Below, piece by piece: positions 61,394-63,857 of a DNA stretch of 64,000 bases (the stretch's first letter is position 1; each line of letters opens with the position of its first letter). A program made the position numbers and the translations under genes. The DNA is from Blastopirellula sp. (GTDB lineage: Bacteria; Planctomycetota; Planctomycetia; Pirellulales; Pirellulaceae): contig NZVR01000152.1 in the NCBI GenBank assembly GCA_002701545.1, positions 8,790 through 72,789 on the forward strand, written 5' to 3'. Below the pieces are notes generated by a model. It was not told the DNA's origin. It made no database searches and saw only the letters and a list, made by a program, of their open reading frames with translations.

Positions 61394-63034
61394 TTACAGC
61401 TCAATCGACTCGACTTCGCGGACGAACCTTGCGGCATCGTCGCTCAGGTACGAGGCGACGACGTGGAACACCGCGTCACTGAAGCCACCGATGTTCAGGA
61501 TATCGTCACGTTCCGGAGCTTGTGTCGATCCGTACGGCTGGACGTCGATGCAGACCAGCTTTGGCGAGCGTGTCCCCATCCGCTGCTGGTTTGCTACGAA
61601 CGCCTGCCACTCGGTCAGGACGCCCGTTGCACTCCGGCCGCCGTAAGCGAACGGTCGGTCACTGTCGATCCAACTCTCGTTGTCGCTGACCAGCACCACG
61701 CCCGCGAACGTTCGCTTGCGGTACTTGGTGTTTGCCTGATGCAGCGGGGTGGAGCAGTCGGTTCCACCGCCACCGTAAGTCGCCAGCCGTTCCGACAGAC
61801 TCAAGATCGAGTCGGACGGATCGATGCGGACGTCGTACGCTCGCGTGTCAAACGGAATGACCACGCTGTCCGGGTTCTTACGCAAGATCGCCGCGGCGAA
61901 CAGGGCCGCCACGTCGACACAGCGCATCTTGGTCGTGCCACCTCGAGCACCGTAACCCGTAATCGGGCAGCTCATCGAACCGGATGTATCCAGACCGATG
62001 ACCACCGGGCCCGGCAGCTCCGGCACATTGCCGCAGGCGATCTCGGCTGCGCGATGCAGCGCCGTATTGATCTGGTGCGGAAGTTCCGGGGCGGCGTTCA
62101 GGTACGCAGCCAAGAACTGGTACGGGAACTGGCGTGAGCGGCGGATCGCATGTGCATCCGTCAGGCGACTTGCCACGTAACTGACCATCTCCCGCCCTGC
62201 CTTATCGCTCGTCAGCACCTCGTGACGCAGGAGCGTGTTGAGATTCATCCGCAGCGCCTGAGGTCCCATCTGGCGAGCGATTGCCTTCCAGACCAGCGGC
62301 CCCTTGGCAGCGTCAGCCAGCAGATCCCAGCGTACAGACAGGTGACCCGCAATCCGTGCCTGGGCTTGAGCGGTAGTCGCCTGGCGGTACGCGATCAAAC
62401 CCTGGACTTGCGCCGGCAGGTCAGTTGCGTTGGCCGGAGCCCACTTTTCGATCTCCTTGCCCGTTAACCAACCGAACAGCGCACGTCGCGCGTTGTCCCG
62501 CGGGGTTGGTCGAGCCAGCCTGAGGACATCGCGCAGGCTCGGATCGTTACCGATCGAAGCCGACAGCAACTGATTCACGGACGCTTCGTTCAGCCATCGC
62601 TGGAACGCGCGCTGCAGGCTGGACGACAAGCTGGTGCGACCGAACTGTCCTGAGCGGATCATCTGGAACATGGTGCGCAGCACGCGACCGTTATCCACGA
62701 CCCGATCAAACGTCCGGTGCAGTAGCTCGGTGTCACGCTTGGACAGCACGACCAACAGCGCCGCTGGCATGTCCTTCATGTAGGCGCGTTCCCGGGCGTA
62801 GACGGCCAGCTTGGCCAGGAAGACGTTGTCGTCGACCTGATCGATCAGCGTGCGCATTTCGTCTAGCTGGTGTTCGGCACGGGTGTAGTAGGTGCCGTTG
62901 AAGCAGCCGGTGGCAGCCATCTGGGCCAGCGCGTGCTTGGGAGTGAACTTGTACGCCCGACCTCCAGCCTCGTTGACCGTATTGGTCCGCACGAACCGAC
63001 TCTTGATACTGGAAAACAAAGTCTTGTTGGCCAT
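61394..63034 (-). CDS. rsr: Ro60/Rsr orthologue (TROVE domain + C-terminal vWA domain)
   Basis: '[44 protein letters not shown]' is the conserved bacterial Ro60 N-terminus. HEAT-like TROVE repeats follow. The C-terminal vWA has the MIDAS motif '[11 protein letters not shown]'. ATG 63034 is preceded by GAAGGAGG (63039-63046). The ORF-track TTG at 63049 is not needed. Confidence 0.9.
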
Positions 63035-63047
63035 CGTGACCTCCTTC

Positions 63048-63120
63048 AAAAATGACCCGACGAAATCTTGGGTGCAGAGACTCGGCTGGTGGTGTTGGAC
63101 TCCGCGCCGGCAGTCGGATC
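63048..63120 (-). ncRNA. Candidate Y-RNA-like unit Y3 (short form, no T-arm), ending in U5 directly before the rsr RBS
   Basis: Closing helix GAUCCGAC (63113-63120) / GUCGGGUC (63054-63061), 8 bp with one G.U. The shared 5' motif UGCCGGCGCGGAGUCCA follows the helix. The 3' side is AUUUUU (63048-63053), abutting GAAGGAGG. Confidence 0.4.
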
Positions 63121-63129
63121 GTGGACGCG

Positions 63130-63277
63130 CACTCGACGAAGTTGTGGGGTAGAGCGAATCCCTGCGAAGCCGCGCACGCGCGGTTCACAGGGTCCGGCCC
63201 CATCGATAGATTTCTCTGAGGGGGCCGGGCGGGAATCGAACCTGCTAAGCCATGGACTCCACTCCGGCAGTCGAGTG
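63130..63277 (-). ncRNA. Candidate Y-RNA-like unit Y2 with a tRNA-like T-arm and loop-closed acceptor-like helix
   Basis: Closing helix CACUCGAC (63270-63277) / GUCGAGUG (63130-63137), perfect 8 bp. D-like arm GCC-GGAGUGGAGUCCAU-GGC. T-arm GCAGG-UUCGAUU-CCCGC (63229-63245, one A.C mismatch). An 8-bp hairpin CCGGCCCC (63221-63228) / GGGGCCGG (63194-63201) follows with a 19-nt loop, then a further stem CCCUG...CAGGG enclosing CCGCG-CGUG-CGCGG. Confidence 0.45.
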
Positions 63278-63319
63278 TGTTTTGTGTGCCGACAGACGCT
63301 GTCTGCCGGAGCGTGTTTT

Positions 63320-63467
63320 AAAAAAATGACCGACGAGGTGTTTGAACCAGAGATTGACGATGCTCTGCCTTTGAGCTACGGCGCTACGTGCTGAAGTCGC
63401 GCCGGTGGGACTCGAACCCACAACCTTCGGGTAATGAACCATGGACTCCACTTCGGCAGTCGGTCAT
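63320..63467 (-). ncRNA. Candidate YrlA-type Y RNA (unit Y1): circularly permuted tRNA mimic with terminal U7
   Basis: Closing helix AUGACCGAC (63459-63467) / GUCGGUCAU (63326-63334), perfect 9 bp, then U-tract to 63320. Inside: T-arm GUGGG-UUCGAGU-CCCAC (63405-63421). Next comes the acceptor-like helix CGGCGC (63399-63404) / GCGCCG (63379-63384), closed by a 14-nt loop. Then U-A plus a canonical D-arm GCUC-AAAGGCA-GAGC (63362-63376). Confidence 0.5.
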
Positions 63468-63475
63468 ATCGGGGT

Positions 63476-63592
63476 GGCGACGAAGTATCGGTCAGATACG
63501 TTTCCATTGCTGCACGGGACTCGAACCCGTCAACCGAGTGCGGTTGCCAGACTCATTGAGCAGAGCCGATGGATTCCGATCCGGTCGTCGCC
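63476..63592 (-). ncRNA. tRNA-like unit Y0 (7-bp acceptor-like helix + ACC, long variable arm, T-arm, extra hairpin)
   Basis: GGCGACG (63586-63592) pairs with CGUCGCC (63476-63482), followed by ACCCC. D-like arm CCG-GAUCGGAAUCCAU-CGG. Stem GGCUC/GAGUC with an 8-nt loop UGCUCAAU. Variable-arm-like hairpin CAACCG-CACU-CGGUUG. T-arm ACGGG-UUCGAGU-CCCGU (63514-63530). A 31-nt insert containing GUAUC-UGACC-GAUAC precedes the 3' acceptor strand. Confidence 0.4.
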
Positions 63593-63617
63593 GTGTTTTT
63601 TCAAGTGTTTCCAAAGG

Positions 63618-63698
63618 CACTCAACGAAGTGGTATCGAGACGGTGCTTATGGCACCAGGTTCACAGCCTGGGATGGAGTCCCGACGGGCAGTTGAGCA
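63618..63698 (-). ncRNA. Candidate Y-RNA-like unit X (short form, no T-arm)
   Basis: Closing helix UGCUCAAC (63691-63698) / GUUGAGUG (63618-63625), 8 bp with two G.U. Shared 5' motif UGCCCGUCGGGACUCCAU. Internal hairpins CCAGG-CUGUGAA-CCUGG and GGUGC-CAUAA-GCACC. Confidence 0.35.
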
Positions 63699-63706
63699 TC
63701 GATGGC

Positions 63707-63784
63707 GACCTTCCAACGAAGGAATGGCTCAGATACGTTTCAGCTCCCAAAGTTGATGTAATCCGAACCGACAGTTGGTTGGTC
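63707..63784 (-). ncRNA. Candidate Y-RNA-like unit W (short form), starting 2 nt after the tRNA-Cys-like gene
   Basis: Closing helix GACC-AA-CCAAC (63774-63784) / GUUGG-AA-GGUC (63707-63717): 5 + 4 bp around an AA/AA internal loop. Shared 5' motif UGUCGGUUCGGAUUACAU, plus the GAAACGUAUCUGA motif also present in Y0. Confidence 0.35.
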
Positions 63785-63786
63785 AG

Positions 63787-63857
63787 AGACGCAGGTGGGA
63801 ATCGAACCCACTTCCACTGCTTTGCAGGCAGTTGCCTGGCCATCTGGCTCCCGCGCC
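63787..63857 (-). tRNA. tRNA-Cys(GCA)-like gene (cloverleaf complete, non-canonical G8/G14, no encoded CCA)
   Basis: Acceptor GGCGCGG/CUGCGUC (7 bp, two G.U). D-arm GCC(A)-GAUGGCC-(A)GGC with A13.A22. Anticodon arm ACUGC-CUGCAAA-GCAGU (anticodon GCA at 63823-63825). 4-nt variable loop. T-arm GUGGG-UUCGAUU-CCCAC (63795-63811). Discriminator U, as expected for tRNA-Cys. Position 8 is G rather than U. Confidence 0.55.

Follow-up and report, generated by a model that had tools for sequence, protein, structure and literature searches.

The DNA that we analyzed, a 64,000-nucleotide stretch of a Blastopirellula sp. contig (NZVR01000152.1; hereafter the window), carries on its minus strand a gene for a small RNA, Y1, followed by rsr, which encodes an orthologue of Ro60 and the presumed protein partner of the RNA. 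The 3' end of Y1 stands 285 nucleotides (nt) upstream of the rsr start codon, and a gene for tRNA-Cys and a partial tRNA at the edge of the window lie farther upstream on the same strand. Our results identify Y1 as a YrlA-type bacterial Y RNA, that is, a conserved non-coding RNA of a class described before. It is a divergent planctomycete member that falls below the database threshold, and the class itself is not new. An earlier interpretation, made from the DNA letters without database searches (the sequence-only reading), had seen in this region a Y RNA that carries a circularly permuted tRNA mimic. That overall reading was correct and equals the established description of YrlA, but it overrated the novelty of a class that has been published (Chen 2014, Wang 2018). 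The explanation that we consider very likely joins a YrlA-class Y RNA gene to a terminal stem that docks Rsr, a permuted tRNA-like module, and a role as an adaptor.

Read 5' to 3' on the minus strand, with hairpins in parentheses, Y1 begins as AUGACCGAC-UGCC-GAAG-UGGAG-UCCAU-(GGU UCAUU ACC)-CGA-AGGUU-(GUGGG UUCGAGU CCCAC). Its middle part runs (CGGCGC GACUUCAGCACGUA GCGCCG)-UA-(GCUC AAAGGCA GAGC)-A-UCG-UCAAU-CUCUG, and from this last strand the 3' part continues as CUCUG-GUUCAAACAC-CUC-GUCGGUCAU-UUUUUU. The elements that the sequence-only reading had listed are all present where it had placed them on the minus strand (Table 1).

Conserved structure of Y1 and its relatives

A BLASTN search with the 148 nt of Y1 recovered full-length relatives (70-87% identity) on the rsr strand and upstream of rsr in most of 80 planctomycete loci, which hold rsr orthologues at 66-88% identity to the query gene. 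We aligned 60 distinct sequences with MAFFT and built a covariance model, R1, from a structure of eight helices, which was searched over the window and the 80 loci. R1 found 93 full-length members (at least 89 bits), all on the rsr strand; their model-fitted alignment leans toward the structure, and the homologue counts given below out of 91 refer to distinct sequences. Full-length homologues of Y1 stand 5' of rsr in 63 of the 80 loci, and cultured carriers of the orthologous unit include Stieleria marina K23_9 (L043), Novipirellula sp. SH528 (L062), and Rhodopirellula sp. SWK7 (L067). Within the 64-kb window, R1 matches with E < 0.1 are confined to positions 63047-63811, beside rsr.

The secondary structure is supported by covariation. 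RNAalifold, run on the MAFFT alignment, independently recovers the closing helix, the T-arm, the acceptor-like stem (AS), and the D-arm, with double substitutions at 15 of 26 pairs. The eight-helix model adds the pairs G14-C133 and A15-U132, the upper stem UGGAG/CUCUG, the hairpin GGU/ACC, and the 3-bp CGA/UCG remnant of an anticodon stem. Under this model, 95.2% of cells are paired in the MAFFT alignment and 95.1% in the model-fitted alignment, with compensatory change at 19 and 26 of the 37 pairs, respectively. None of 500 column shuffles matched the observed values on any of five measures, and moving the 3' partners by 1-3 columns brought pairing down to 35-51%. A protein-coding interpretation of the region was rejected: no Pfam domain matches the open reading frames (ORFs) at 63388-63756 (+), 63068-63394 (+), and 62733-63203 (-), and indels of 1-2 nt occur in the alignment.

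Support extends to the individual helices. Compensatory changes occur across homologues at 8 of the 9 pairs of the closing helix. In the model-fitted alignment, the upper stem, a helix that is also present in the five units neighboring Y1, is 98.5% paired with compensatory change at 3 pairs; the middle pair of the V hairpin covaries (CG 30, GC 22, AU 18); the CGA/UCG remnant is paired in 97.3% of cells and has compensatory changes at all 3 of its pairs; and such changes are found at 6 of the 6 AS pairs. The T-arm is 100% paired, with compensatory change at 3 pairs. The Rfam YrlA consensus lines up in register with its UUCGA and is identical to Y1 in the D-stem.

At the end of the molecule that would contact the protein, GCCGAAG (nt 11-17; 63457-63451) fits the YrlA motif GNCGAAN0-1G. 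In the MAFFT alignment, C9, U10, and G11 are invariant, conservation is 90% or higher at C12, C13, and G14, and positions 15-16 vary, while C130, U132, C133, and G134 are invariant in all 60 sequences. The pairs G14-C133 and A15-U132 are formed in 84.6-94.2% of cells, and the terminal stem is near-invariant at 5' GAC-UGCC-G and 3' CYUCG-UC. By analogy with characterized Y RNAs, the bulge of this stem and GCCGAAG make up a putative Rsr-binding site.

The remainder of the RNA resembles a tRNA in its tertiary features as well. Among the 60 aligned sequences, U8-A9 occurs in 59, A14, A21, and the D-loop GG (G18G19) occur in every one, and the T-loop UUCGA, which in Y1 includes U55, is present in nearly all. 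The Levitt pair covaries, being A15:U48 in 44 sequences, G15:C48 in 15, and G:G in 1. Three base triples (U8-A14-A21, C13-G22-G46, and A9-U12-A23) are seen in the YrlA crystal structure PDB 6cu1 (Wang et al. 2018, bioRxiv 10.1101/312249), and the nucleotides that form them are identical in Y1. For YrlA compared with tRNA-Phe, an RMSD of 2.4 Å has been reported. The conserved tertiary nucleotides and the Levitt covariation thus argue for an intact elbow, with support that is evolutionary rather than thermodynamic. The position of the Y1 gene, its conserved and covarying structure, and the covariation of a tRNA tertiary pair are all directly supported.

These results bear out the sequence-only reading in every part that could be examined. 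The permuted tRNA topology, opened at the anticodon stem, is backed by covariation in CGA/UCG, T, the loop-closed AS, and D. The elbow, which had been called intact on the strength of U8, A14, the D-loop GG, and UUCGA, has A9, A21, the three triples, and the covarying Levitt pair in addition. The 37 nt said to end in CGA-AGGUU are there, and they also contain GCCGAAG, the UGGAG strand, and the covarying V hairpin (GGU/ACC). The proposal of a Y RNA whose Ro-binding stem is built from its 5' and 3' ends agrees with the placement of rsr downstream and with covariation in the closing stem; binding itself would follow by analogy. Two points fared less well. A terminal run of seven U had been singled out, and it does exist in Y1, its first U pairing with nucleotide A1, but it is no feature of the family: a seven-U tail occurs in 2 of 91 distinct homologues, and 59 of 91 have at least four U within those 7 nt. 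A scan of the minus strand for promoter and terminator consensus sequences detected nothing and called no terminator, so that the U tract is unconfirmed as one. In addition, the D-loop of Y1 (AAAGGCA) is devoid of U, which makes dihydrouridine impossible in this copy, and the suggested test for that modification could not come out positive; orthologues with AAUGGUA might carry it. YrlA-class RNAs have been described as substrates of the tRNA-modifying enzymes TruB (pseudouridine-55) and DusA (dihydrouridine).

The AS of Y1 is closed by a loop and lacks a free CCA end. A 6-bp stem is found in 47 of the 91 homologues, and 43 have one of 7 bp or more, as L055 and L001 do. In the model-fitted alignment its loop starts with a semi-conserved N-A-C-U (Y1 nt 70-73; 63395-63398), with A in 62, C in 62, and U in 59 of 91, and these four nucleotides occupy the positions of tRNA N72, the discriminator (73), C74, and position 75. 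Processing of the kind known for Mycobacterium smegmatis YrlA, in which a cut by RNase P on the 5' side of the AS is accompanied by trimming of the loop and addition of CCA, would turn functional Y1 into two halves held together by base pairs, with a tRNA-like 3' end that is free and could perhaps be charged. This M. smegmatis precedent, the semi-conserved loop start, and the longer stems of the 43 homologues are what such splitting has in its favor. Yet the AS of Y1 has only 6 bp, with G72 and A1 of the tRNA numbering unpaired, as in Salmonella YrlA, where RNase P cleavage went undetected; a 7-bp stem has been named as the major determinant (Chen et al., PMC4201824), and NACU differs from CCA. 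We regard splitting as unlikely for this copy, and family members that combine an AS of at least 7 bp with a NACU start could be cut by RNase P and acquire CCA. Some YrlA-like members reach about 205-213 nt (L059:2240-2452, L069:1825-2037, and L059:1260-1465) through an AS-loop insertion of up to 80 nt, and they bring to mind the "much longer" acceptor stems reported in cyanobacterial YrlAs.

The order of T-arm, AS, and D-arm would also fit a functional, circularly permuted gene whose product is processed into a tRNA for decoding, of the kind known from the red alga Cyanidioschyzon merolae. We give that possibility practically no credence: Y1 has no anticodon loop, its 3-bp anticodon stem opens into the junction toward the Y stem, and its loop-closed AS has 6 bp and no CCA. 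The sequence-only reading had drawn the same distinction when it took the RNA, with an anticodon stem of about 3 bp, for a mimic and not for a functional permuted tRNA gene.

Table 1. Features of the Y1 locus in window coordinates (R1, covariance model of Y1 and its relatives)
Feature	Position	Strand	Remarks
Y1 RNA gene, YrlA-class Y RNA (unit Y1)	63320..63467	-	148 nt; R1 150.9 bits; full tRNA mimic
Closing (Y-stem) helix, 5' strand AUGACCGAC, nt 1-9	63459..63467	-	Pairs with 63326-63334
Putative Rsr-binding site: 4-nt bulge UGCC overlapping GCCGAAG, nt 10-17	63451..63458	-	Predicted from sequence
Upper Y stem, 5' strand UGGAG, nt 18-22	63446..63450	-	Pairs with CUCUG
V hairpin GGU-UCAUU-ACC, nt 28-38	63430..63440	-	At three-way junction; covarying
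Anticodon-stem remnant, 3' strand CGA (tRNA positions 41-43)	63427..63429	-	Pairs with UCG
Variable loop AGGUU (tRNA 44-48)	63422..63426	-	Includes G46 and U48
T-arm GUGGG-UUCGAGU-CCCAC	63405..63421	-	Covarying
AS stem-loop CGGCGC, 14-nt loop, GCGCCG	63379..63404	-	6 bp, loop-closed
U8-A9 linker and D-arm GCUC-AAAGGCA-GAGC	63362..63378	-	D-arm itself 63376-63362
Anticodon-stem remnant, 5' strand UCG (tRNA positions 27-29)	63358..63360	-	Pairs with CGA
Upper Y stem, 3' strand CUCUG, nt 116-120	63348..63352	-	Pairs with UGGAG
CYUCG 3'-strand motif facing the bulge, nt 130-134	63334..63338	-	Conserved
Closing helix, 3' strand GUCGGUCAU, nt 134-142	63326..63334	-	RNAalifold and covariation
3' U tract, six U past the last paired U	63320..63325	-	Read from sequence
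rsr (Ro60 orthologue, presumed protein partner)	61394..63034	-	546-aa ORF; Pfam vWA_Ro60 8.9e-15, TROVE 4.6e-11
tRNA-Cys	63857..63786	-	Upstream of Y1
Partial tRNA	Window edge	-	Upstream of Y1
Unit E	63782-63703	-	R1 30.4 bits; short distal module
Unit A	63699-63611	-	R1 20.7 bits; short distal module
Unit B	63592-63476	-	R1 19.8 bits; T-arm only
Unit C	63278-63123	-	R1 44.7 bits; T-arm-like, 8-bp AS-like stem, long hairpin replacing D
Unit D	63121-63047	-	R1 31.5 bits; short distal module

Y1 as a divergent member of the YrlA class

YrlA RNAs have been defined as lying within 4 kb of a Ro60 gene on the same strand and as having GNCGAAN0-1G near the 5' end, conserved T and D stem-loops with an AS between them, a less conserved V 5' of T, and tRNA-type tertiary nucleotides with compensation in the Levitt pair (Chen et al. 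2014, PMC4201824). Most of them have been likened to circularly permuted tRNAs with closed acceptor stems, whose anticodon stem leads into the Ro60-binding module (Wang et al. 2018, 10.1101/312249). Our findings place Y1 within this description. Both Y1 and the related loci have a Ro60 (TROVE) gene within 4 kb on the same strand; T, AS, and D follow one another 5' to 3', with UA between AS and D and V 5' of T, and this arrangement is backed by covariation. The segments UAGCUCA...AGAGC and GGGUUCGA.UCCC, which cover the near-invariant D- and T-stems, agree column by column with the Rfam YrlA consensus, and the tertiary nucleotides and Levitt compensation are found throughout the planctomycete set. 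When the Rfam YrlA model (RF02553) was compared with Y1, it matched positions 63339-63442 at 39.8 bits (E 8.8e-7 in a 2-kb search), and its alignment puts the anticodon-stem remnant, variable loop, T, AS, UA, and D all in register.

Several observations weigh against this assignment or against parts of the explanation built on it. The score of 39.8 bits is below the RF02553 gathering threshold of 69, which was reached by none of the 20 best-matching planctomycete loci that we scanned. The minimum free energy (MFE) fold of the single sequence is not significant (z = -1.24) and favors another junction, with the covariation-supported structure at -36.1 kcal/mol compared with -47.5 kcal/mol for the MFE. 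There are no adjacent rtcBA genes, and the genes downstream encode DUF1501 and PSCyt/PSD1 proteins. The Rfam shortfall can be attributed to the stems outside the tRNA-like core, since the junction region is unlike that of the Salmonella-type model. A scan at gathering thresholds returned two tRNAs only, and the YrlA match surfaced solely under an E-value threshold; such sub-threshold scores mean that databases would miss planctomycete YrlAs. As for folding, the MFE and centroid structures have no helices in common beyond T, AS, D, and the closing one, and because the single-sequence fold is non-significant and has a different junction, we did not use it as evidence for the junction.

Chen et al. 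(PMC4201824) cautioned that dimeric tRNAs can imitate YrlA matches. Y1 does lie downstream of tRNA genes, and related loci contain large tRNA arrays, so a functionless pair of pseudogenes left by two tandem tRNAs, one contributing a T-arm and acceptor 3' strand and the other an acceptor 5' strand and D-arm, deserves consideration. Several results make this extremely improbable. No anticodon arms flank the element, ARAGORN calls no tRNA there, and RF00005 gives no match even at E up to 10. Both acceptor-like strands covary as a single hairpin, and covariation spans the entire unit, taking in the outer stem, the Ro motif, and the CGA/UCG pairs. Moreover, a position relative to rsr that is constant in 63 of 80 loci and pairing of 95% are not expected of decaying pseudogenes.

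Compared with the YrlAs of Salmonella Typhimurium (PDB 6cu1) and M. smegmatis, of the family RF02553, Y1 is alike in its adjacency to Ro60/Rsr on the same strand, in its order of V, T, loop-closed AS, UA, and D, and in its 5' motif GNCGAAN0-1G. Y1 and these RNAs have the same D-stem GCUC/GAGC and T-loop UUCGA, the Levitt covariation and triple nucleotides agree, and a 6-bp acceptor-like stem is shared with the Salmonella RNA. YrlA loci, like that of Y1, also contain a second tRNA-like or T-arm-bearing Y RNA plus short hairpin-type Y RNAs. The differences lie mainly outside the tRNA-like core. Where the Salmonella-type model has a 7-bp inner stem, Y1 has a three-way junction at which a 5-bp upper stem meets the V hairpin and the anticodon remnant of 3 bp. 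The Y1 clade keeps both strands of the Ro helix (5' GACUGCCG and 3' CYUCGUC), whereas the 5' strand alone can be recognized in Salmonella and M. smegmatis (Chen et al.). This copy of Y1 has UC where most of its relatives carry the conserved UA that forms a kink in the crystal structure, and its U-free D-loop likewise sets it apart from YrlA. Unlike Salmonella YrlA, Y1 has no linkage to rtcBA/rtcR, and unlike described YrlAs, it belongs to a six-unit array behind tRNA genes. An RNA-repair operon of the Salmonella type (rtcBA) was considered as a setting and rejected, as it is absent from the immediate neighborhood that DUF1501 and PSCyt/PSD1 genes occupy. These genes and the 80 related loci assign the window to Planctomycetota, with a Pirellulales-like character.

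Other systems share fewer features with Y1. In Deinococcus radiodurans, the Rsr-bound Y RNA is co-transcribed upstream of rsr in the order tRNA-Asp, Yrn2, Yrn1. Yrn1 and Yrn2 resemble Y1 in retaining both strands of the Ro helix and in having a T-arm. In Yrn1, unlike Y1, the T and D elements are oppositely oriented relative to the 5' end, an anticodon-like arm replaces the AS, and there is no clear D-arm, while Y1 has the YrlA arrangement. The metazoan Y RNAs hY1, hY3, hY4, and hY5 have paired 5' and 3' ends, a Ro60-binding bulge, and a U-rich 3' end, as Y1 does, but no tRNA-like module. The 5'-strand CCGAAG of human Y1 is, we presume, common to it and planctomycete Y1. To our knowledge, the U tail of metazoan Y RNAs, which is an RNA polymerase III terminator and La-binding site, has no bacterial counterpart. 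L-shaped tRNA mimicry with a T-loop/D-loop elbow is also seen in tmRNA, the tRNA-like structure of turnip yellow mosaic virus, and mascRNA, all of which differ from Y1 in being unpermuted and in having a free CCA or processed acceptor end. ARAGORN found no tmRNA in the Y1 region, and Rfam mascRNA matches were limited to true tRNAs. Our full-text literature search, which did not extend to the 254-species tables of Chen 2014, returned no paper tying Y RNAs to Planctomycetes.

An array of Y RNA-like units between tRNA genes and rsr

Y1 is the fourth of six tandem Y RNA-like units that fill the space between tRNA-Cys and rsr (63047-63782, minus strand) with gaps of 1 to about 40 nt. All six have a closing stem and an NNGGAG/CUCUNN helix of 5-6 bp, together with a 5' bulge of 4 nt (UGCC, UGUC, or GACC) and a CA-rich 3' bulge of 7-10 nt. 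Two of the neighbors are partial tRNA mimics. Unit B has a perfect T-arm, ACGGG-UUCGAGU-CCCGU, and no recognizable D-arm. In unit C, a T-arm-like hairpin contains an A·C mismatch, the AS-like stem (CCGGCCCC/GGGGCCGG) has 8 bp, and a long GC-rich hairpin stands at the place of the D-arm. The 41-nt spacer from the U tract of Y1 to unit C holds a 9-bp hairpin, CCGGCAGAC-AGC-GUCUGUCGG (63283-63309, minus strand), with no U's after it, which may serve in processing or belong to a promoter region.

Similar arrays occur in other planctomycetes. R1 gave 304 matches in the 80 loci, none of them off the rsr strand; of the 300 that were tabulated, 299 lie upstream of rsr. For 60 loci the upstream sequence extends to 2.4 kb or more, and in these the number of units per locus has a median of 4 and a maximum of 9, figures that are undercounts owing to the use of default filters. 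Full tRNA-like copies number one in 31 of these loci, two in 18, and three in 4, and there are none in 7. Several planctomycete genomes have two rsr loci (L023/L024, L051/L058, L013/L041, L046/L061, L070/L074, and L020/L026), on two contigs or at two positions of one assembly, and most of these have a Y-RNA array of their own. The one tabulated match that is not upstream of rsr, a full YrlA-like RNA (127 bits), lies about 1.7 kb downstream of the rsr stop on a 5-kb contig (L004:4580-4714), possibly as the start of a second array or locus.

The arrays are closely tied to tRNA genes. In 15 of 20 loci scanned, the array begins 3-5 nt past a tRNA-Cys(GCA) that is the last gene of a tRNA array on the same strand, with up to 17-18 genes, and in the window the gap from tRNA-Cys to the first Y unit is 3 nt. 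For example, L001, L013, L036, and L072 have 17, 18, 17, and 10 same-strand tRNA genes, respectively, within about 2 kb ahead of their Y arrays. In the tRNA array of L072, the genes called by ARAGORN include a tRNA with a 4-base anticodon (ccta, "tRNA-???") at 254-325 and a tRNA-SeC(tca) at 1305-1377. The arrangement suggests a single polycistronic transcript of tRNAs, Y RNAs, and rsr, in which 3' processing of the tRNA makes the 5' end of the first Y RNA. Y RNAs adjacent to tRNAs are known from some bacteria, and there are smaller precedents for the array: D. radiodurans has at least two Y RNAs and other small RNAs, together with the tRNA-Asp/Yrn2/Yrn1 polycistron. In the literature that we searched, we found no account of Y-RNA arrays this large.

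The array also abuts rsr itself. Unit D ends in GUCGGGUCAUUUUU; the rsr ribosome-binding site GAAGGAGG follows after 2 nt and the ATG after 13 nt (63034-63060, minus strand), a spacing that puts Y-RNA 3'-end formation physically next to rsr translation initiation. One could argue from this that the units, packed tightly on the rsr strand up to the ribosome-binding site, act mainly in cis on the rsr mRNA, as a leader or a scaffold for processing that serves as a stabilizer, attenuator, or RNase entry site and so controls rsr expression, and not in trans as RNP components; the U5 at the end of the last unit is separated from GAAGGAGG by just 2 nt, and the U tract of Y1 could attenuate read-through. 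We consider this highly unlikely. A leader would have no need of a Ro motif, a full tRNA tertiary set, or Levitt covariation, and in M. smegmatis YrlA and YrlB are processed from just such a precursor and are bound by Rsr. In addition, the U tract is not conserved, and the consensus scan of the minus strand gave no canonical terminator.

Possible roles of Y1 and its array

In functional terms, a Y RNA is an RNA that Ro60/Rsr binds in vivo and that needs this protein for its stability, and Y1 is a candidate by this definition. What can be said of the binding of Y1 to Rsr, its effector, its processing, and its modification is drawn from homologous RNAs. By that analogy, Y1 would probably be cut from a polycistronic precursor of tRNAs, Y RNAs, and rsr. 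Its 5' and 3' ends would pair into a 9-bp stem that, with its conserved 4-nt bulge and GCCGAAG, may dock the ring-shaped Ro60 orthologue Rsr. Beyond the upper stem and three-way junction, the permuted module (3-bp anticodon remnant, variable loop, T, AS, U8-A9, and D) is predicted to fold into the L-shape of a tRNA through the D-loop/T-loop elbow, the Levitt pair, and the three base triples. Y1 might thus serve as an adaptor, with Rsr on one end and a tRNA-like end that recruits or occupies an effector, and such a role would specialize RNA surveillance and decay. In D. radiodurans and Salmonella, a Y RNA tethers Rsr to polynucleotide phosphorylase (PNPase) for the decay of structured RNA. Proposals in the literature for YrlA's tRNA-like domain include a tRNA-binding protein that recognizes the elbow, which the structure paper (Wang et al. 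2018) predicts, protection from nucleases, and competitive inhibition of an anticodon nuclease.

On its own, Y1 is mostly of value for annotation, and the architecture of the surrounding locus is the part that deserves follow-up. Tentatively, and with somewhat less than even confidence, we propose that Y1 is the conserved anchor of an undescribed type of locus in Planctomycetia, in which a tRNA array, diversified Y units, and rsr follow one another on one strand. In such a locus the Ro stem may be common to all units while the distal modules differ, being a full mimic, a T-arm only, a T-arm with AS and hairpin, or short. If all units were expressed and bound by Rsr, this would be the largest Y-RNA repertoire of any organism. 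It would amount to a library of adaptors that couple one Ro60 ring to several effectors, co-expressed with the tRNA array and perhaps monitoring it.

More generally, our analysis extends the reach of the YrlA family to Planctomycetota with 93 covariation-backed examples below the Rfam threshold, which can be used to re-seed the family. Covariation of the Levitt pair in a distant phylum is independent evolutionary support for the view that selection keeps the tRNA L-shape of YrlA and not merely its sequence. The planctomycete form, with both strands of the Ro helix retained and the tRNA module set on a three-way junction, may help to define how Rsr recognizes its RNA. Finally, the combination of a tRNA array, a Y-RNA array, and rsr, which is found in cultured strains too, offers a natural system in which to seek the effector of the tRNA-like domain.

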